DNA from: Armatimonadia bacterium
GTDB taxonomy: Bacteria; Armatimonadota; Zipacnadia; Zipacnadales; UBA11051
DNA length: 14,014 nt
Direction: 5' to 3'
Assembly (NCBI GenBank): GCA_039683575.1
Contig: JBDKRC010000214.1
Coordinates: 1 to 14,014 of the forward strand
Position 1 is the stretch's first letter; every line of letters begins with the position of its first letter. Made by a program: the position numbers and the translations under genes. Shown here in pieces: positions 1,676 through 13,490 of this stretch. Below the pieces are notes generated by a model. The model saw only the letters and a list, made by a program, of their open reading frames with translations, had not been told where the DNA came from and did no database searches.

Positions 1676-2869
1676 ATGCGACTGGTGCTGTGCGAAAACG
1701 AACCAGGAGATGCGGATCGGCTCATCCAGGCGCTTGGCGACACGACGTCTGTCGAGGTGGTTGGGATCGCCCGGGACGGGCTTGAGTGCGCCATGATGGT
1801 GACACAGCTACGGCCTGACCTCGCGCTGATCAGGGCGAACATGGCTGCACTTGATGGTGGCCGGGTCGCCCGCCTCAACGCTCTGACCTCTCCTGACACG
1901 ATCTCTGTGCTCGTTGCAGATGATGAGGCTGCCGCCAACGGCCTGCTCAAGGCCGCCATGCGTTCCGGGGCCAGAGCCGTAACCCATCTGGATGCTGATC
2001 CGGCCCAACTGGTGGGGACGTTGCAGGAACTCCTCCAACTCAGGCCCTCGCGCACGGACGACGACTACCTGCTGGTGAGCGATCCCAGACGTCTGCCAGT
2101 GACGATATCAGTGACGGGGTCCAAAGGTGGGATTGGGAAGACCACCACGGCGACGAACCTCGCCCTGGCCATGCAGCAGCGCTTCCCGGGCCAGGTGGTC
2201 CTGGTGGACTTTGTCGGCCACTATGGCGACATAAGCCTGATGCTCGATCTGAAGCCGCAGAATAACATCCTGGACCTCGCTGGGCTCAAGGAACTGGATG
2301 CCGATATTGTCCAGCCGATGGTATCAGTTCATTCCAGCGGCCTGCACGTGATGGCGGGCGTCAACAGCGCCGATACCCTGACGGCCACTGGAAGACTGTC
2401 ACCGATGCACGTAGCCGGTCTGCTCGGTGTCTTGCGGCGGATCTACCGGATCATCGTGATCGACGTTCCGGCCCTCGCGTACCCGCTGAGCCAATACCTC
2501 TACCAGCGCAGCACGTACATCTGCCTACTCACCTGTCTTTCAGACCTGACAACAGTCCGGAGCACGGCCTCTTTGATGCAATCACTGCTTGCCCAGAGAA
2601 TCCCGGCCAACCGCGTCAAGCTGGTGGTCAGTCGCCATGACACGCGGGACACGTATTCGGTCGCCCAACTGGAGGATTCGCTGAAACATCAGGCGGCCGT
2701 GCTGATCCCCGCGGCCGACGAGGTCGCGACGACCGCCCTGAACCGGGGGATCCCCTATGTGCTGGGCAAGCCGACCTCCCCCCCGGCGATGGCCATTGGA
2801 CACCTGGCGGACCTGATAGTGCGGGACATGGAAGCTGCGGCCCAGGCCGCCTTGGGGAACACCAGGTAA
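1676..2869 (+). CDS. cpaE: CpaE/TadZ-like pilus localisation protein (atypical receiver domain + MinD/ParA ATPase)
   Basis: Receiver-like N-terminus, deviant Walker A GSKGGIGKTT, VVLVD and IIVIDVP motifs, located directly upstream of cpaF. Confidence 0.85.
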   Translation: MRLVLCENEPGDADRLIQALGDTTSVEVVGIARDGLECAMMVTQLRPDLALIRANMAALDGGRVARLNALTSPDTISVLVADDEAAANGLLKAAMRSGARAVTHLDADPAQLVGTLQELLQLRPSRTDDDYLLVSDPRRLPVTISVTGSKGGIGKTTTATNLALAMQQRFPGQVVLVDFVGHYGDISLMLDLKPQNNILDLAGLKELDADIVQPMVSVHSSGLHVMAGVNSADTLTATGRLSPMHVAGLLGVLRRIYRIIVIDVPALAYPLSQYLYQRSTYICLLTCLSDLTTVRSTASLMQSLLAQRIPANRVKLVVSRHDTRDTYSVAQLEDSLKHQAAVLIPAADEVATTALNRGIPYVLGKPTSPPAMAIGHLADLIVRDMEAAAQAALGNTR

Positions 2870-5219: not shown

Positions 5220-6152
5220 ATGGTTATTGAGTATCTCATCATTGGGTGTTCGGCTCTTGCCGCAATTATGCTCTACCTCGCGGCCAGGTCACGGGAGGAC
5301 GTGGTGGTCCAGCGGCTTGATGCAGCGATGCGGACCGGTGGCCTGGTAATGTCGGGCAGCAGCATCGATGACAGCCTTTCGCGTTCGCCATACCCGCGGT
5401 TGATCGCGCCTCAACTGGGGCGCCTGCGTGACGCTGCAGCAGGGATTGTCCCGCCGCAAGCAATGGCTCGCATCCGTGCCAGACTGGAGCGCGCGGGCCG
5501 CACCGGCCCCTGGGCCAGCGTCTGCTTCATACTGGTCAAGGTGGGGCTTTTGCTGCTGGGCATAGGGGCGGTCCTGCTGACCATGCACTTCTATGGCGGC
5601 TCCCGGCTGATTGGCGCTCTGATCAGCACTTCCCTGATGCTGGGCGCGCTGTACGCGCCTGAAGCCGGACTGAACATGCTGATCCGCAGGCGACACGATG
5701 AGATCAGGCGCTCGCTTCCGGACGTGATTGATCTCCTGGCGGTGAGTGCGGAGGCCGGGGCGGGCCTTGATGGCTCCCTCGGCACTGTAGCCCGCCGCAA
5801 ACCGGGTGCCCTGTCAGATGAGTTCAACCGGCTGCTACTCGAGGTGAGGCTGGGCAAGGGCCGTGACGAGGCCTGGGCTGATCTCGCTGAACGGGTGGAC
5901 CTCCCGGAACTGCGATCCTTCGTATCGGCGCTTGAGCAGGCTGAGGAGATGGGCGTCAGCATTGCGAACACGCTGCGCGTCCAGTCCGATGCCATCAGAA
6001 TCAAGCACAGCCTGCTGATTCGTCAGCAGGCTGCGACGTTGGCCCTTCGAATGCTGTTCCCCCTCGTCTTCTGCATCCTTCCGGCGCTGTTTGTGGTAGT
6101 TCTCGGCCCCGGCCTCATCTCAATCCACAGGGCGATGAGCGCAACGCACTAG
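5220..6152 (+). CDS. tadC: TadC inner-membrane platform protein (T2SS F family)
   Basis: LPDVIDLLAVSAEAGAGLD, QAEEMGVSIANTLRVQS and MLFPLVFCILPALFVVVLGP motifs; follows tadB. Confidence 0.93.
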   Translation: MVIEYLIIGCSALAAIMLYLAARSREDVVVQRLDAAMRTGGLVMSGSSIDDSLSRSPYPRLIAPQLGRLRDAAAGIVPPQAMARIRARLERAGRTGPWASVCFILVKVGLLLLGIGAVLLTMHFYGGSRLIGALISTSLMLGALYAPEAGLNMLIRRRHDEIRRSLPDVIDLLAVSAEAGAGLDGSLGTVARRKPGALSDEFNRLLLEVRLGKGRDEAWADLAERVDLPELRSFVSALEQAEEMGVSIANTLRVQSDAIRIKHSLLIRQQAATLALRMLFPLVFCILPALFVVVLGPGLISIHRAMSATH

Positions 6153-6820
6153 GCGGGCAATCCGTGGCCAAGGCTGAGCGCGCTCTCCACCAGAAAGATC
6201 GCGGCGTCCGCCCGCAGATTCGACAGGAAATGCACTTCCCGGCACCCCCCTTCCCCCACCGTCCGTAGGGGAATCTCCCGCACCAGCCGCAGGTCAGCCA
6301 CCTGACAGAAGTCCCGGAAGTCTTTGATCGTCGTCAAGTGGATGTTGGGCGTGTCGTACCACTCGTACGGCAGCCGCCCAGTCTTGGGCATCCGCCCGCC
6401 GAACAGGAGCTGTGCCCGCGCCGACCAGTGCGCGAAGTTCGGCAGGGTAATCACGCACTGCTTGCCAACCCGCGCCATCTCCTTGATCAGGAGCAGTGGG
6501 CGGTGCAGCACCTGGATTGTGTTGGTCAAGAGGACGTAGTCAACCGACTGGTCTGCATAGTCGGCCAACCCCTGATCCAGGTCGCCATGGATGATGCTGG
6601 TCAATCCCCGCGCCACGCATGCCTGAATGCACCGCTCGGACAGCTCCAGGCCCTGTGCCCTGACCTGCTTTTCGCGGATCAGCGCCTCCAAAAGCTCCCC
6701 ATTCCCGCAGCCAAGGTCCAGCACGCTGGTACCCCGTGCCACCAGGTCAATGATGTATCGGAAGTCCTGCCGCGGACATCCCGCCAGCTGTTCAGACAGA
6801 ATCTCTGCTTCATTTGCCAT
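6149..6820 (-). CDS. metW: Methionine biosynthesis protein MetW (SAM-methyltransferase fold)
   Basis: VLDLGCGNG, PNFAHW, GRMP and LPYEWYDTPNIHLTTIKDF motifs; starts 3 nt downstream of the metX stop. Confidence 0.95.
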   Translation of the reverse strand: MANEAEILSEQLAGCPRQDFRYIIDLVARGTSVLDLGCGNGELLEALIREKQVRAQGLELSERCIQACVARGLTSIIHGDLDQGLADYADQSVDYVLLTNTIQVLHRPLLLIKEMARVGKQCVITLPNFAHWSARAQLLFGGRMPKTGRLPYEWYDTPNIHLTTIKDFRDFCQVADLRLVREIPLRTVGEGGCREVHFLSNLRADAAIFLVESALSLGHGLPA

Positions 6821-6823
6821 CAG

Positions 6824-7957
6824 CTAACTCCTCTCCTGGCCCGCTAGGAAGCTGCGAACCAGACTTGTCAGGCTGTCCGCCTCCAGCAAGAAGGCGTCGT
6901 GCCCATAGTCCGTCTCGATCTCCGTGTACACGACCTCGCGACCATTCTGCCGGAGCGCCGTGACGATCTCTCGGGACTGATACGACGGGAACAGCCAGTC
7001 CGAGGAGAACGAGATCACCAGGAACTTGGCCTGCGTCTTCTCAAAGGCCGTCCGCAGCGATCCGTAGGCGCGTGTCAGGTCGAAGTAGTCCATCGCCTTG
7101 GTGATGTACAGGTACGAGTTTGCGTCAAACCGCTTCACAAAGCTGTCGCCCTTGTAGTGCAGGTAGCTCTCCACCTGGAAATCGGTTACGAAGTCGTAGC
7201 CGTATTCCGCCTTATCCTGCAGCCTCCGCCCGAATTTGTGGTGCATGGACTGGTCGGACAGGTACGTGATGTGCCCGACCATCCGCGCAATGGACAGACC
7301 GTGGACGGGGATGCTCTTGCCGTAGTACTCCCCGTCCCTCCAGTCCGGATCGGACATAATCGCCTGCCGCCCCACTTCATCGAACGCAATCGCCTGCGGC
7401 GACAGGCAGTGCGTGGTGGCGATGGGCAGCACCAAGCGCACGCGCTCGGGGTAGCTCACCGCCCACTGCAGCGCCTGCATCCCGCCCATGGACCCGCCCA
7501 CGACGGCGCACAACTCGTCAATCCCCAAGTGCTCCACCAGCGCCCGCTGCGCATGCACCATGTCCTCAACGGTAATAACGGGAAAAGACAGGGCATATGG
7601 GCGCCCTGTCTTGGAATTCACGCTGGAAGGCCCGGTGGACCCTTTACAGCCGCCGATGATGTTCGAGCAGATGACAAAGTACTTGTTGGTATCGAAAGCC
7701 CGCCCCGGCCCGATCATCACCTCCCACCAACCGGGGGCCTTCTCCTCGGGGCTGTTGTACCCCGCCACATGCGCATCCCCCGACAGCGCGTGGCACACCA
7801 GGATAGCGTTGTCTTTCGCCGCATTCAGCTCGCCGTAGGTCTCATAGGCCAGCGTAACCGGACCCAGAATCTGCCCATTGGCGAGCACCAGTCCGCCGGG
7901 TGCTTCGGCGAAGGTGAAGTACTTGGTCTCGACTATCCCGACCGATCCGTTGTCCAT
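6824..7957 (-). CDS. metX: Homoserine O-acetyltransferase (MetX, alpha/beta hydrolase fold)
   Basis: [16 protein letters not shown], nucleophile [21 protein letters not shown] and GHDAFLLE motifs. ATG 7957 has SD GAGGT; the longer track ORF (to 8020) runs into the REP element. Confidence 0.96.
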
Positions 7958-7977
7958 GATCCCAACCTCTTTCATCC

Positions 7978-8055
7978 CGCGTAGGCGGGTTCGTCTCGAA
8001 CCCGCGGTTCCACAACCCACGTGGGGTGCGGGTTCGAGACGAACCCGCCTACGCG
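7978..8055. repeat. REP doublet (REPIN-like): two inverted GTAG-type REP hairpins
   Basis: Perfect 28-bp inverted repeat at 7978-8005 and 8028-8055. Each arm is GTAG + GCGGGTTCG-TCT-CGAACCCGC. The 22-nt spacer contains the palindrome CCCACGTGGG. Confidence 0.85.
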
Positions 8056-8070
8056 ACGGATTTGCGGGGA

Positions 8071-9369
<1,299 letters not shown>

Positions 9370-9418
9370 CTATCCCCTTCTCTGCGCAACGTGGCGCGTG
9401 GTAATTGTCACTCTTCTC

Positions 9419-10126
9419 CTAAAACTGGTGGGTAAAGGCCACCGCGAACTGGTTGTCCAGCCCGTCGTTGACGCGGGCGAGGCCGGCGTCTATCGTGGTT
9501 TCGGCGTCTACCGTGTACCGGATTGCGATGTCCTTCCAGTCGTCAACCTCCGGCTGCCCGTAGTACTCCACGCCTGCGATCAGCTTAGGCGTCGCCTGCA
9601 CGCCCAGGAAGCCTCCAAACTGCAGTGAGTGCGAGGTGTCCTTGCCGAAGAGGCCCGAGCCGATGCCGTTGGTGTAGCGGGCCGTCACGCTGGCAATGAT
9701 GGGCTTCTTCGCCGGGAAGATCTTGGTGGCGGCCACGTAGAAGTCACTCGTGGTCGGGCCGCTGGTGGCGTCACGGACGATTGTGCCAATGGCCACCGCC
9801 GGCTTCTCGCCTCTGAATGGCACCGCGATGTACTTGGCGTGGAAGATGTTGAACTCGTTCTGCCCGCCGGCGTTCAAATCGGCGCGTGTCAGACCGACCT
9901 CGAGGTTCTTCGCGGCGCCGTAGGTCACGCCAAAGGTAGTCAGGGAGCCCACTGGCTGCAGGTTCAGGTAATGGCCGGAGACCGACGTCTTGCCTTCGGC
10001 GAGATCGATCGCGAGCGGGTTGAGGAAGACGCCGGTGGGGCCTTCCCAAGTGCCCTGGGCATGGACCGCGGTGACTGCGGAAGCGATCGTCAGTACGGCA
10101 ACGGCAAACAGAATGCTGCTTTTCAT
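9419..10126 (-). CDS. Exported protein, probable outer-membrane beta-barrel of unknown function (YjbH/DUF3034-like)
   Basis: Sec signal MKSSILFAVAVLTIASAVTAVHA|Q, N-terminal EGPTGVFLNPLA, alternating amphipathic beta-strands and C-terminal VAFTHQF (terminal Phe beta-signal). SD GAAAGG before ATG 10126. Family name is tentative. Confidence 0.7.
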   Translation of the reverse strand: MKSSILFAVAVLTIASAVTAVHAQGTWEGPTGVFLNPLAIDLAEGKTSVSGHYLNLQPVGSLTTFGVTYGAAKNLEVGLTRADLNAGGQNEFNIFHAKYIAVPFRGEKPAVAIGTIVRDATSGPTTSDFYVAATKIFPAKKPIIASVTARYTNGIGSGLFGKDTSHSLQFGGFLGVQATPKLIAGVEYYGQPEVDDWKDIAIRYTVDAETTIDAGLARVNDGLDNQFAVAFTHQF

Positions 10127-10143
10127 GGAAGTAGCCTTTCGCA

Positions 10144-10163
10144 CAGCGCCGCCAAGGGCGCTG
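10144..10163 (-). promoter_or_regulatory. 7-bp stem-loop immediately 5' of the beta-barrel gene SD
   Basis: On the minus strand CAGCGCC-CTTGGC-GGCGCTG, followed by TGCGAAAGG. Confidence 0.45.
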
Positions 10164-10258
10164 CAGTATTATTGGTTGGTACTCGTACGACAGGTCTGAT
10201 TGGGGGTTAGTCGAGGGGGTGACGGGGTTAGGAAGCGAGGCTCATACTTCAAGCCGCC

Positions 10259-10303
10259 CTATTCGGCCGCACACCCCTCGCACATGCTACATGACTGTCT
10301 CAT
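10259..10303 (-). CDS. 14-aa Cys/Met-rich peptide MRQSCSMCEGCAAE (candidate leader peptide; absent from ORF track)
   Basis: Minus strand reads AAAGGAGGT-AGCCAA-ATG AGA CAG TCA TGT AGC ATG TGC GAG GGG TGT GCG GCC GAA TAG. Near-full anti-16S SD at 6-nt spacing; 3 Cys + 2 Met inside a cys/met operon. Confidence 0.72.
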   Translation of the reverse strand: MRQSCSMCEGCAAE

Positions 10304-10340
10304 TTGGCTACCTCCTTTGCAGCTAGCAAACTCTCCTGAT

Positions 10341-10373
10341 CCAGTCACGCGGACGACGCGCCCGCGCGACTGG
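10341..10373 (-). other. Strong stem-loop after cysK stop (mRNA stabiliser, processing or pause site)
   Basis: Minus strand CCAGTCGCGCGG...CCGCGTGACTGG gives 12 bp with one G-U pair. No U-tract follows. Confidence 0.6.
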
Positions 10374-10382
10374 TGAATGTAG

Positions 10383-11336
10383 CTAGATATCCACCCGCTC
10401 CAACTCCGCCGGATCATAGGCAAACAGCTCTGTGGACAGGTACCGCTCGCCGGTGTCAGGCAGCACCACGACGATCAGCTTGCCCACATTCTCGGCGCGC
10501 GCGGCGATCTGCAGGGCCGCGTTTGTGGCAGCCCCCGATGACACGCCGGCCACGATTCCCTCGGTGCGGGCCAACTGCCGCGCGGTCGCTATGGCGTCCT
10601 CGCTGGTCACTTTGATGATCTCATCCACCAGTTCTCGCCGCAGTACCTTCGGCACAAAACCGGCTCCGATGCCCTGGATCTTGTGCGGCCCTGGTGCGCC
10701 GCCCGACAGGACAGGGGACTCTGCCGGCTCGACCGCGATCAACTGCAACTCCGGCTTGACCGGCCGCAACGCCTCGCCGATGCCCGTCAGGGTCCCGCCC
10801 GTGCCCACACCGCCGACCACAATATCTACCGCGCCACGCGTGTCCCGCCAGATCTCCGGCCCCGTCCCCATCCGGTGTGCGTACGGGTTGGCCAGATTCT
10901 CAAACTGCTGCAGTAGCAGATACTTCTCATCTGACGCCGCAAGCTGCTCGGCATAGGCCACTGCTCCCTTCATCCCCTTAGCCGCCGGCGTCAGGATCAG
11001 CTTCGCGCCCAACGCCACCAACAGCCGCCGTCGTTCCTCAGTCATGCTCTCGGGCATCACCAGAGTCAGCGCATATCCCCGGACCGCCGCCACCAGCGCC
11101 AGACCGATCCCTGTGTTACCGGAAGTCGGCTCTAGCAACACCGTATCATCCTTGATGCGCCCGATTGCCTCCGCCGCCTCGATCATCGTCAGCCCGATCC
11201 GCTCCTTCACACACGACAGCGGGTTGAACGACTCCACCTTCGCGACCACCCGTCCCGGCAGCCCTTCGGCCAAGCGGTCCAGGTACACCAGCGGGGTGTT
11301 TCCGATCAACTCAGTGATGTTGGTTGCGATAGCCAT
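10383..11336 (-). CDS. cysK: Cysteine synthase A (O-acetylserine sulfhydrylase)
   Basis: IGNTPLV, PLP-lysine [47 protein letters not shown] and [10 protein letters not shown] motifs. SD GAGGTG. Confidence 0.97.
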
Positions 11337-11354
11337 TTCGCCACCTCTTTTTTC

Positions 11355-11382
11355 ACTAACTACATAGAGTTAGTGTAGATTA
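11355..11382 (-). promoter_or_regulatory. Candidate operator copy 1 in cysK 5' leader (TAATCTACACTAACTCTATGTAGTTAGT)
   Basis: Same 28-nt TAAT...AGwTAGT frame as the copies at 11433-11460 and 11567-11594; internally dyad-symmetric. Confidence 0.45.
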
Positions 11383-11432
11383 AAGATAACAGGCAAAAAA
11401 AGAGAGAGCTTGGTGCCCTACACTCACTGCCC

Positions 11433-11460
11433 ACTATCTCTACTTTGTTGGGTGGGATTA
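11433..11460 (-). promoter_or_regulatory. Candidate operator copy 2 overlapping cysK -10/+1 (TAATCCCACCCAACAAAGTAGAGATAGT)
   Basis: Shares TAAT-N12-AGTwGAGATAGT with the copy at the hydE promoter. Confidence 0.55.
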
Positions 11461-11485
11461 TGTACATTGTCTCGGTCCGTGTCAA
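11457..11485 (-). promoter_or_regulatory. Sigma70-type promoter for the cysK-met operon
   Basis: TTGACA (11485-11480), 17-nt spacer, CATAAT (11462-11457). Confidence 0.7.
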
Positions 11486-11543
11486 CAACTATTTTTCTGC
11501 CCGCCACATACCCCTCCACCGAACGCCTGATCATTGCTCACGC

Positions 11544-11572
11544 TTGACTCGTAGACAGTTTATCAATAATAT
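11544..11572 (+). promoter_or_regulatory. Sigma70-type promoter for hydE-larE
   Basis: TTGACT (11544-11549), 17-nt spacer, TAATAT (11567-11572). SD AGGAGAGG lies before ATG 11611. Confidence 0.7.
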
Positions 11573-11594
11573 CCATTGGAATAGTTGAGATAGT
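11567..11594 (+). promoter_or_regulatory. Candidate operator copy 3 overlapping hydE -10/+1 (TAATATCCATTGGAATAGTTGAGATAGT)
   Basis: Matches copy 2. An additional tandem half-site AGTTGGGATAG sits at 11592-11602. Confidence 0.55.
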
Positions 11595-11610
11595 TGGGAT
11601 AGGAGAGGTA

Positions 11611-12666
11611 ATGACAGCCCTGACGCCTGAAGCCCTATCCGCCGCAACCGCCCCCGACCTTGCGGCTCTGCTCGAAACCTCCGACCCCGCGGTCGCCGAC
11701 GCGCTGTTAGCCGCCGCCGATACCACCCGCCGCGAACACCTCGGCGATGGCGTCCAACTCCGCGCGCTCATCGAGTTTTCGAACCATTGCACTCGCACCT
11801 GCCACTACTGCGGCCTCCGCGCCGCCAATGAGGCAATTCCGCGCTACCGCATGCCTTTGGAGGAGATCGTCCAGGCCGCCCTCCGGGCCAGCGCCCTCGG
11901 GTATCAGACTGTTGTACTTCAATCCGGCGAGGACCCCTGGTACACATGCGACCGCGTCTCGTGGCTCGTGCGCGAGATCAAGGCACAGACCGGCACGGCC
12001 ATCACCATCTGCCTCGGCGAGCGCCCTCGCGACCACTACGCAGCCTGGCGCGACGCCGGGGCCGACCGCTATCTCCTGCGCATCGAAACCAGCAGTTCTG
12101 TCCTCTACCATGCCCTGCACCCGGGTATGTCCTTCGGCAACCGTCTGCGCTGCTTGCAGACGCTCAAGGCACTGGGCTACCAGCTTGGCTCCGGCATCCT
12201 CATCGGCCTCCCCGGCCAGACCCCGCTGCTGCTCGCCAAAGACCTCCTCTTCCTCCGCGACCTGCAGCCCGACATGGTCGGCATGGGGCCCTTCATCTCC
12301 CACCCGCAGACTCCGCTTGCCCACCAGCCCGGCGGTGCCCTTGACCTCACCCTGCGCATGATGGCCTTGGCGCGGCTCTTCCTCCCCGGCTGCCATCTCG
12401 TCGCTACCACGGCCCTCGGCAGCATTGACCCGCTCGGACGCGAGCGCGGCCTGCAGGTCGGCGCCAACGTCCTGATGCCCAACGCCACGCCCCGCCAGTA
12501 CCGCGCCGACTACGAGATCTATCCGAACAAGATATGCCTGGACGAAGAGCCCGAACACTGCCGCGGCTGTATCGAAGGCCGCCTCAATACCATCGGCCGC
12601 CACGTCGCCTCGGGCCCCGGCCATGCCACCAGACTGGAGCAGCACCCATGCCCGACACAGCACTGA
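11611..12666 (+). CDS. hydE: HydE-type radical SAM enzyme ([FeFe]-hydrogenase maturase HydE/BioB-like family)
   Basis: RALIEFSNHCTRTCHYCGL (CxxxCxxC), VVLQSGED, RYLLRIET, IGLPGQ, GPFISHPQTPL, ATTAL, GANVLMPN, YEIYPNK and a C-terminal Cx7Cx2C auxiliary-cluster motif. Confidence 0.88.
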   Translation: MTALTPEALSAATAPDLAALLETSDPAVADALLAAADTTRREHLGDGVQLRALIEFSNHCTRTCHYCGLRAANEAIPRYRMPLEEIVQAALRASALGYQTVVLQSGEDPWYTCDRVSWLVREIKAQTGTAITICLGERPRDHYAAWRDAGADRYLLRIETSSSVLYHALHPGMSFGNRLRCLQTLKALGYQLGSGILIGLPGQTPLLLAKDLLFLRDLQPDMVGMGPFISHPQTPLAHQPGGALDLTLRMMALARLFLPGCHLVATTALGSIDPLGRERGLQVGANVLMPNATPRQYRADYEIYPNKICLDEEPEHCRGCIEGRLNTIGRHVASGPGHATRLEQHPCPTQH

Positions 12667-13490
12667 CAACCAAATACGCCGCCCTGCGCGAGCACTTGCA
12701 GCAACTTGGCAGCGTTGTCGTCGCCTTCTCGGGCGGCGTGGATAGCTCGCTGCTACTTGCCGTGGCCCATGAGGCACTGGGCGACAAGGTGCTCGCCGCG
12801 ACCGAAGTCTCACCCATGTACGCCGCCGAAGAACTGCAGCGCGCCCAGACCTTCGCCCGGAGCCTCGGCGTCCGCCACGCCCTGATCGAGACCACTCTCG
12901 ATGTTCCCCAGGTGCTCGCCAACGCCCCGGACCGCTGCTATCACTGCAAGCGCAGCCTCTTTTGCGTACTCCTCACCCGAGCTGCGGCCGAGGGCCTCGC
13001 CCATGTGGTCGAGGGCGCCCACGCCGACGACGTCGGCGACTATCGCCCCGGCCTGCGCGCTGCCGAGGAGCTTGGCATCAAGGCCCCCCTCCGCGACGCC
13101 GGCTTCACAAAGAGCGACATCCGCGAACTCTCGCGCCGACTGGACCTCCCCACCGCCGATCTGCCCGCCCAGGCGTGCCTGGCTTCGCGCTTCCCGTATG
13201 GCAGCCCAATCACCGCTGAGAAACTCCAGCAAGTGGCACGCGCCGAAGCCAGCCTTCGCGCCCTCGGCTTCGCTACCATCCGCGTCCGTCACTACGGCGA
13301 CCTCGCCCGCCTGGAAATACCCACCGTTGATCTCCCCCGCCTATTCAGTAACCAAACGCGAGACGGCGTGGTCGCTGCTGTCAAAGAGGCCGGCTTCACC
13401 TACGTCACCGCCGATCTCCAAGGCTTCCGCTCCGGCAGCATGAATGAGGTTCTCAGTGGAAATGCTTCACCCCGGGGAACATCTATTTAG
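12648..13490 (+). CDS. larE: LarE-family ATP-dependent sulfur transferase (PP-loop), with Cys triad of [4Fe-4S]-type LarE
   Basis: AFSGGVDS PP-loop, RCYHCK, DYRPG, ACLASRFPYG, RVR and GFRSGSMN motifs. ATG 12648 with SD GGAG overlaps the hydE end by 19 nt. Confidence 0.9.
   Translation: MPDTALTTKYAALREHLQQLGSVVVAFSGGVDSSLLLAVAHEALGDKVLAATEVSPMYAAEELQRAQTFARSLGVRHALIETTLDVPQVLANAPDRCYHCKRSLFCVLLTRAAAEGLAHVVEGAHADDVGDYRPGLRAAEELGIKAPLRDAGFTKSDIRELSRRLDLPTADLPAQACLASRFPYGSPITAEKLQQVARAEASLRALGFATIRVRHYGDLARLEIPTVDLPRLFSNQTRDGVVAAVKEAGFTYVTADLQGFRSGSMNEVLSGNASPRGTSI

Follow-up and report, generated by a model that had tools for sequence, protein, structure and literature searches.

A conserved short open reading frame in front of metY in Armatimonadota as a candidate cis-acting leader inside a sulfur amino-acid operon

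The question raised by this locus is whether a 14-codon open reading frame (ORF) lying between cysK and the methionine genes of an Armatimonadia bacterium makes a small protein for its own sake or controls the genes that follow it. The locus lies in a 14,014-nucleotide (nt) stretch of contig JBDKRC010000214.1, called the window here, to which all coordinates refer; the short ORF (sORF) and the cysK and met genes are on the minus strand. The sORF occupies 10303..10259, from the ATG at 10303..10301 through 14 codons to the TAG at 10261..10259, and the codons after its ATG are AGA CAG TCA TGT AGC ATG TGC GAG GGG TGT GCG GCC GAA. The encoded peptide, MRQSCSMCEGCAAE, contains three Cys and two Met, initiator included, with the Cys in C-x-x-C-x-x-C spacing. 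Its Shine-Dalgarno sequence (SD), AAAGGAGGT, occupies 10318..10310, 6 nt 5' of the ATG. On balance we favour the reading that this is a translated cis-acting leader ORF located inside the operon, which would gate the homocysteine/methionine branch through Rho loading, masking of the next ribosome-binding site (RBS), or both. A cis-acting leader fits better than a free-standing small protein because the element has a fixed position in front of metY, a canonical SD and ATG, a length and tail that are free to vary, a motif of slow codons and a long leader behind it.

Within the window, the sequence AAGGAGGT occurs once, with about 0.2 occurrences expected per 14 kb and 90 found in the 6.23-Mb genome, and the SD is therefore the strongest in the window. 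Cys and Met make up 1.4% and 2.2% of the residues in 2,787 long ORFs of the genome, a crude background set picked by the GC content of third codon positions (the other gene calls used for background statistics were also crude). Four of the 13 non-initiator positions of the peptide are Cys or Met, and the window copy is thus enriched in both. The original prediction, which had described the strongest SD in the window 6 nt before an ORF for a 14-residue CxxCxxC peptide with five Cys or Met residues, was therefore accurate for this copy. Two population contigs, about 97% alike in DNA and taken from two runs, show a single change in the SD and sORF (10263 T>C on the plus strand, GAA to GGA, E14G), located in the variable tail of the peptide, and the upstream spacer carries four to five changes per contig.

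The element is conserved in relatives. The 238-nt spacer between cysK and the next gene, which is labelled the barrel gene here, was compared by blastn with 61 relatives, and the matches were confined to the part that holds the SD and sORF (80% identity in G003 and 76% in G002, both of the same genus and both over query positions 66-115). In 30 loci, one of which stops at the end of cysK, the DNA past the best cysK match was inspected, and SD-led sORFs were found at the locus of the window itself and in G003, G002, G032 and G018. When metagenomes were scanned with three aligned barrel proteins, seven loci were obtained, five of which carry the sORF (L173, L174, L175 as a partial copy, L177 and L178); of the other two, L172 begins downstream of the sORF position and L176 has the barrel gene in another context, without an sORF. 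A sequence-only model, R1, built from eight sORF copies matched six of the 67 genomes of the order at E < 1e-8 (G000, G002, G003, G017, G032 and G018), with one copy in each, and the next best match was at E 0.0145. By a loose scan and by R1 the sORF is single-copy in its genome, the second-best R1 matches in G000 including none below E 0.07. The G017 copy and L174 are the same locus, so that the family comprises 10 versions, nine complete and the L175 copy partial, from about six independent lineages. The expectation that an SD and a short ORF would be conserved upstream of the barrel or metY genes of relatives was followed up in this way and held, the element always lying 5' of metY or of barrel-metY.

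The family peptides are MRQSCSMCEGCAAE in the window, MMRCPCSMRQGCTKR in G003, MMRCLCSMRPGCTKR in G002, MRCLCSMRLGCTKR in L173, MRYSCSMREGCTEG in L177, MRPLWYMPEGCMFGQRAGVG in G017, MIKGLSRFAYGMRRGCAGAHCRGPG in G032, MMSFAEFVRGMRDGCARGRGGGG in G018, MTDTTQFVSGMAYGCKLGHDT in L178 and the partial ..MHPGCSPGRSGR in L175. Their only invariant part in the alignment is Met-x-x-Gly-Cys, present in 10 of 10 copies, which in the window is Met7-x-x-Gly10-Cys11 (ATG TGC GAG GGG TGT, 10285..10271). All nine complete copies have an SD of the GGAGG-, GGGAG- or GGGGG- type placed 5 to 8 nt before an ATG that is in frame with this motif. The frame is kept while the length ranges from 14 to 25 codons, the stop may be TAG, TAA or TGA at 3 to 9 codons past the Cys, and the tails differ (AAE, TKR, RGRGGGG and LGHDT). 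The three long and most divergent forms share F-[AV]-x-G-M-x-x-G-C. The peptides contain 3, 3, 3, 3, 2, 2, 1, 1, 1 and 1 Cys, the last figure being that of the partial copy, and the Cys are never adjacent. By inspection, Cys-richness and the CxxCxxC pattern do not extend beyond the window copy and its close relatives; CxxC itself is found in the window copy only, and G003, G002 and L173 have C-x-C. Thus, of the Cys-rich CxxCxxC peptide that had been proposed, one Met codon and one Cys codon are invariant in the family, and the Cys-richness and the CxxCxxC spacing are not family features.

The codons of the core are also conserved. The pair GGG TGT is used in eight of the 10 copies (ATG-N6-GGG-TGT), with GGG TGC in G018 and GGA TGT in G032, so that TGT and GGG each appear in nine of 10 cores; in the genome, TGT makes up 21% of Cys codons and GGG 27% of Gly codons. 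The genome has a single tRNA-Cys(GCA), which reads UGU by wobble, and a single tRNA-Gly(CCC), which matches GGG exactly. Across lineages there are synonymous differences (AGA/CGA, CGC/CGG/CGT, GGT/GGG, GGG/GGA, TGT/TGC and GCA/GCG). Among the copies of the genus, the conserved codons do not vary at any of their three positions, and the variable ones change at all three. Over the roughly six lineages, this conservation may be read as a mixture of coding, decoding-speed and RNA-level constraint.

The downstream side of the element is constant. In the window, G002, G032, G017/L174 and L173 the genes past the sORF are barrel-metY, and in L177, L175 and L178 the barrel gene comes next and then the contig end; in G003 and G018 the barrel gene is absent and metY follows directly past the leader. 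On the upstream side the neighbour varies: it is ThiF-like in L178, metB-like in G017 and cysK in most of the family. Because the downstream side is constant while the upstream side varies, the element belongs to the metY unit. A metY of the window's type is rare in the order, being found in four of 67 genomes at E <= 1e-150 (the G032 and G017 copies are cut by contig ends), and in a sample of the phylum metY was found in 71 of 401 genomes at E <= 1e-190. At 27 metY loci outside the family (L145-L171) the sORF is absent, and cysK abuts metY in three of them. The distant metY loci numbered 107 (L031-L110 and L145-L171), the metY contig scan having given loci 54-66% identical among the matches listed. 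At these 107 loci, again among the matches listed, no SD-led motif was found upstream on the metY strand, and R1, which was applied to 100 of the 107, gave a single weak match, on the wrong strand, at E 0.033.

The cassette cysK-sORF-(barrel)-metYXW is patchily distributed: three of the four genomes in the window's genus have it, as does one genome in each of three other families. Between families, metY is 83% identical and cysK 70% (68-71% for cysK across the sORF-bearing lineages). This patchiness and the difference in identity suggest that the cassette may have spread laterally, or was repeatedly lost, as a unit.

Between the sORF and the next gene lies an untranslated leader of 132 nt (10258..10127) that is rich in C and poor in G (C 0.36, G 0.22). 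The corresponding interval between each sORF and the next start codon is 132-204 nt in the family, with C at 0.33-0.45 and G at 0.19-0.31. The stretch next to the barrel gene is a non-coding 5' untranslated region because a TGA in frame stands just upstream in L177 and L172. The most skewed 80 nt of the window leader, at 10235..10156, have a skew of 0.56 (99.7th percentile of genome windows) and form a candidate Rho-loading tract, and the genome contains a rho gene (591 bits against a cut-off of 509). When compared with 80-nt windows of G000, the first 80 nt of the leader fall in the 95th to 99.8th percentile of C>G skew in nine of 10 copies. Leaders are also predicted to be structured, with folds at z <= -2 in seven of 10 copies and z -2.82 in the window. 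A hairpin, CAGCGCC-loop-GGCGCTG, lies right before the next RBS at 10163..10144 (-15.2 kcal/mol, z -2.33); all four barrel-linked copies at genus level retain it, L177 with two compensatory pairs, and it is followed by GTGCGAAAGG with no U-run.

In addition, a 10-bp long-range helix is predicted between the two RBSs. Its 5' arm, GGAGGTAGCC, is the RBS of the sORF (10315..10306), and its 3' arm, GGCTACTTCC, is the spacer between the barrel SD (GAAAGG, 10140..10135) and the barrel ATG (10136..10127). In the window this duplex is predicted at -19.6 kcal/mol, against -12.5 +/- 2.5 in shuffles (fraction 0.006), and across the window, G002, L173 and L177 it ranges from -19 to -20 kcal/mol, with the shuffles at -9 to -12.5 (fractions 0.002-0.016).

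From these features a mechanism can be proposed in which we infer that the sORF is translated. Ribosomes would load on its very strong SD, and the speed at which they clear the Met...Gly-Cys codons would be set by the charging of Met- and Cys-tRNA or by the nascent peptide. Reading of the core may be slow in any case, with UGU decoded by wobble of the single tRNA-Cys(GCA) and GGG by the single tRNA-Gly(CCC). The speed of the ribosome on the sORF would then decide the state of the next 130-200 nt of untranslated RNA, with two possible outputs. First, Rho could load on the C-rich, G-poor tract and end transcription before metY. Secondly, in the window's genus the helix between the RBSs could open or close and so couple translation of the barrel gene to occupancy of the sORF. 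The direction of the switch could be either way. If stalled or queued ribosomes hold the sORF RBS, the barrel RBS would be freed and shortage would turn expression on. If stalling frees the C tract from the G-rich core, Rho would gain access and shortage would turn expression off, which would make sense as a "cysteine first" partitioning of sulfide, and not as a response to methionine shortage.

Several points weigh against a cis-acting leader of this kind. First, no run of regulatory codons was found in the 10 peptides, and the one internal Met and one Cys that are invariant are fewer than in described amino-acid attenuators. Secondly, the codon pattern within the genus looks more like constraint at the nucleotide level than at the protein level. 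Third, the C-rich tract is a candidate rut-like (Rho-utilisation) site as judged by composition, the first 80 nt of the G032 leader are unskewed (53rd percentile), and under a fairer control of 728 same-strand gaps of 120-400 nt the window's best 80 nt fall in the top 3.6% and the other family leaders anywhere from the top 1.2% to the top 24%. A leader predicted to be structured would also fit poorly with a free Rho-loading site. Fourth, no terminator consisting of a hairpin and U-run was found on the minus strand of 10258..10127, nor any terminator/antiterminator pair. The RBS-RBS helix is significant in four of nine copies, all of them close relatives, and is not so in the other five, and no covariation was seen in it. 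A specific pairing between the GGGGTGT core and the C tract, which looked compensatory by eye in G018 and G032, failed a shuffle test: RNAduplex with 300 dinucleotide shuffles per leader gave fractions of 0.06-1.0 in all 10, and the idea was dropped because nothing was seen beyond composition. Lastly, if stalling exposes the C tract to Rho, methionine shortage would switch methionine synthesis off, which is odd physiology.

A more specific version of the leader, which we regard as an outside possibility, takes Met-x-x-Gly-Cys to be a new ribosome-arrest or sensor peptide. As a nascent chain within the ribosome, it would read a sulfur metabolite or soft metal (for example sulfide or persulfide, homocysteine, S-adenosylmethionine or copper) and gate Rho termination at an operon-internal point, so as to divide sulfur between cysK and metY-X-W; the upstream cysK would be unaffected and the downstream metY-X-W would be gated. 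The extended F-[AV]-x-G-M-x-x-G-C of the long forms would be part of such a sensor. If the general reading of a cis-acting leader is true, a translation-based switch operates at the branch point of cysteine and methionine, inside the operon instead of at its head, and in the conserved motif there may be a new arrest or sensor sequence. It would also mean that elements of this type can be recovered from uncultured genomes by synteny alone, and annotators would gain a defined gene family of 14-25 codons.

The rival that survives best, although we consider it improbable, is that the sORF encodes a micropeptide acting in trans, which might, for example, bind a metal through thiol and thioether groups, carry persulfide or be a small partner to MetY, CysK or the barrel protein, with Met-x-x-Gly-Cys as its functional site. 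The strong SD would suit high output, the spacing of the three invariant residues is fixed, soft metals have Met and Cys among their ligands, and the F-[AV]-x-G-M-x-x-G-C of the divergent copies exceeds what a codon-counting leader needs. However, the length of 14-25 residues and the flanks are free, there is neither a signal peptide nor a hydrophobic segment, and the single conserved Cys provides no CxxC-type site; the CxxCxxC metal or Fe-S site that had been suggested as an alternative for the window peptide is likewise not conserved. The third-position invariance of GGG TGT argues for a constraint at the RNA or decoding level, and the sORF is always tied to a long leader of conserved composition that a free-standing small gene would not need.

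Somewhat less probable again is an RNA element that works independently of translation, as a structure or as a binding site for a protein, small RNA or ribosome, in which the apparent SD and the GGGGTG core would be G-rich partners of the C tract and the next RBS. This would account for the invariance of TGTAGCATG and GGGTGT at all codon positions in the genus copies while their neighbours change freely, and it agrees with the structured leaders, with the pairing of the sORF RBS to the barrel RBS spacer, and with the pairing of the core to the C tract in 10 of 10 minimum-energy folds. However, the core-tract pairing is no better than composition, no helix involving the core shows covariation, and the sORF segment alone is unstructured (z +0.57). 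Rfam at E <= 1 gave no match in 10100..10400 of the window and one unrelated microRNA-model match on the 10 related loci. The nine complete copies all keep a properly spaced SD and ATG, the frame with the core AUG and a stop, despite cysK being only 68-71% identical between lineages. An antisense ORF was also considered and rejected: the open antisense frames have no consistent start or length, and their common part is the reverse complement of the core.

It is very doubtful that the peptide is a substrate of the ribosomally synthesised and post-translationally modified type, or a sulfur carrier, for a HydE-like radical SAM protein and LarE, as the original prediction had offered among its alternatives. 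The two genes adjoin cysK in the window and, in another orientation, in G032, and the peptide has a conserved Cys. However, the pair is found by cysK in just these two of the five loci with enough flanking DNA (G003 and G018 are left out of the count because their contigs end) and is absent in G002, L177 and G017; the sORF tracks metY and not the pair, and there is no leader/core organisation, protease or exporter. A functionless chance ORF behind a chance SD is hardly credible: seven of 23 sites in the genome with AAGGAGGT plus a start do precede ORFs of fewer than 30 codons, and a loose scan for SD-led ORFs of at most 35 residues with M..GC gave 40 matches against 27 in a reversed-sequence control, but this reading is already contradicted by the spacer comparison, in which the SD and sORF are the sole conserved part, by the invariant motif and fixed synteny of the family, and by its R1 distribution (six of 67 genomes, plus five metagenome contigs).

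Two further ideas were tried and rejected. A regulon of further copies in the genome found no place in the same loose scan, where the C-rich tail was present in one of the 40 matches, the known window copy. A sulfur-carrier role for the peptide itself was considered in view of the C-terminal Gly and the ThiF-like gene of L178; by inspection, only some copies have tails ending in G, and the peptides are far too short for a ThiS-like fold. The L178 gene is a ThiF/MoeB-like E1 gene at 1920..2615 of this metagenome contig, between cysK and the sORF, and it hints that some relatives may feed MetY or CysK from a protein thiocarboxylate.

The preferred reading, a cis-acting leader ORF, can be set beside several known systems, for its proposed way of working is like theirs and it belongs to none of them. 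With neither an Rfam match, nor an intrinsic terminator, nor tandem regulatory codons found, it falls outside the described attenuator families. Control by leader peptides is textbook knowledge for Trp, His, Leu, Thr and Phe, while the known RNA-level controls of methionine genes are riboswitches and T-boxes, and our literature search found no leader ORF in front of metY. The classical trp, his and leu attenuators stand at the 5' end of the transcript and have tandem regulatory codons and a U-run terminator paired with an antiterminator. The element resembles them in being a short SD-led leader ORF before biosynthesis genes, with codons for amino acids related to the pathway, and differs in having no codon cluster, no U-run terminator pair and a position away from the transcript 5' end.

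TnaC senses free tryptophan and stalls at its stop codon beside a mapped rut site, in a catabolic operon. Like tnaC, the element has few conserved residues at fixed spacing (M-x-x-G-C in 10 of 10), an untranslated spacer and no intrinsic terminator. In contrast to TnaC, the stop codon and the length of the tail (3-9 codons past the Cys) are not conserved and the TnaC motif is absent; against the mapped Rho site of tna stand here a rho gene and a C-rich, G-poor tract in nine of 10 copies, identified by composition in leaders predicted to be structured. The tna operon is described, in the available part of the source, as combining an arrest peptide with Rho-dependent attenuation (PMC10941005). 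CruR, the copper-responsive upstream ORF of Bordetella, is described in the part of the report available as a DUF2946 protein with CXXC and a C-terminal RAPP arrest motif (Roy et al. 2022, PMC9426467). The likeness lies in being the first ORF of a unit that leads on, in Bordetella, to an outer-membrane protein gene; by inspection, RAPP as given there occurs in none of the 10 peptides, which are 14-25 residues long, and CxxC occurs in the window copy alone. The residue pattern and the terminator-less C-rich spacer are closer to tnaC and CruR than to classical or mycobacterial attenuators.

The nearest described system, as far as the available text of that work goes, is the polycysteine sORF attenuator of mycobacteria (Canestrari et al., 10.1101/834739). 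These sORFs are described there as cysteine-responsive attenuators that are leaderless, stand at the head of the transcript and contain at least two consecutive Cys codons; an RNA duplex is proposed to make access to the next RBS depend on sORF occupancy, and in it the Cys codons themselves pair with the SD region (10.1101/834739). In common with that account, there is an unannotated sORF with Cys codons in a polycistronic sulfur-metabolism transcript, and one sORF would give control at the level of the operon. The differences from it are that the sORF of the window is SD-led and lies inside the operon past cysK, that no adjacent Cys occur in the 10 peptides, which share one invariant Cys and one Met, and that the downstream genes are those of the methionine branch. 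Furthermore, it is the sORF's own RBS, and not its Cys codons, that is predicted to pair with the next RBS spacer (four of nine copies, no covariation). Seliverstov et al. (2005, PMC1262725) predicted leaders with Cys runs and candidate Rho sites for the cys operons of Mycobacterium and P. acnes and for cbs of B. longum, and the available part of this actinobacterial survey gives no RNA-level element for methionine operons. Their leaders, as described there, resemble the element in having Cys codons near the stop and no terminator hairpin, with Rho termination proposed by analogy to tna; they have Cys runs at the 5' end of cys operons, unlike the M-x-x-G-C before metY found here.

The genes around the sORF were examined for its place in the transcript. 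Upstream is cysK, coding for O-acetylserine sulfhydrylase (11336..10383, minus strand; PALP 227 bits, TIGR01139 429 bits against a cut-off of 351). A candidate sigma-70-like promoter, TTGACA-17-CATAAT, lies upstream of cysK at 11485..11457 on the minus strand with 11 of 12 matches, as judged by its match to the consensus, and was the sole promoter-like site on the minus strand of 9300..11700; no sigma-70-like site was found on that strand between cysK and the next gene. The sORF begins 79 nt past the cysK stop in the window and just 10 nt past it in G032. Co-transcription of cysK with the sORF is therefore likely, and the site at 11485..11457 is probably the promoter of the whole cysK-sORF-barrel-metYXW unit, in agreement with the operon-internal position that had been claimed for the sORF. 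A 15-bp GC hairpin without a U-run lies 10 nt past the cysK stop at 10373..10341 on the minus strand (-29.6 kcal/mol, z -5.87, none of 200 shuffles as stable), and GC hairpins were seen by eye at the same place past cysK in G003, G002 and G018.

Downstream, the first gene past the leader is the barrel gene (10126..9419, minus strand), which codes for a signal-peptide all-beta protein with a weak match to DUF3034/PF11231 (30.8 bits against a cut-off of 25). An AlphaFold2 model, built on a three-sequence alignment, shows an N-terminal helix and then 12 strands; its mean predicted local distance difference test score is just 45, and "barrel" or "porin" therefore remains a label. The homocysteine branch follows on the minus strand with metY (9363..8071), metX (8020..6824) and metW (6820..6149). 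The gene order cysK, porin, metY, metX, metW given in the original prediction was right, with its "porin" taken as a label. Beyond cysK, on the plus strand, are the HydE-like radical SAM gene and larE (11611..13490; TIGR03956 364.6 bits and TIGR00268 314 bits).

Several minor observations were made around these genes. An H-cluster maturase homologue, the HydE-like gene, adjoins sulfur amino-acid genes in the window and does so in G032 too, where order and orientation differ. Between metY and metX lies a 70-nt near-perfect palindrome (7981..8050) that gave spurious microRNA-model matches on both strands, and it could be a stem-loop inside the operon. The 5' leader of cysK (11337..11456, minus strand) is about 120 nt long and unusually AT-rich for the genome, with a weak hairpin and then a T-run (11419..11405), followed by a second, 8-bp hairpin right before the SD. 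No Rfam match was found in 11337..11456, and this leader may be a separate attenuator or riboswitch for cysK.

Leader-like ORFs also occur elsewhere in the order. Six other genomes, from sister families (L123, L126, L128, L136, L135 and L137), have a different SD-led ORF of about 50-60 codons in the spacer past cysK. Its conserved N-terminal part is rich in Met (VMIRM-x-M, VMGMGM; for example, …EAQVMIRMVM… and …WQVMGMGMP…), and it is followed by a covarying GC hairpin (GCGCCC/GGGCGC, GCGTCCC/GGGACGC, GCGCCGG/CCGGCGC). The ORF stops a few nt short of the start of a gene that begins LPKSYDEINEKIR, which we take from this N-terminal sequence to be a homocysteine synthesis gene of the COG1900 type. 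The second ORF type has no Rfam match and is a candidate methionine-sensing leader. A leader ORF between cysK and a homocysteine-forming gene thus recurs in the order in two unrelated forms. Lastly, in G057 and G042 (L118 and L125) cysK is followed by a signal-peptide protein with several CxC and CC motifs (MRRPHPIIILLL…CCDEH…CGCYD).

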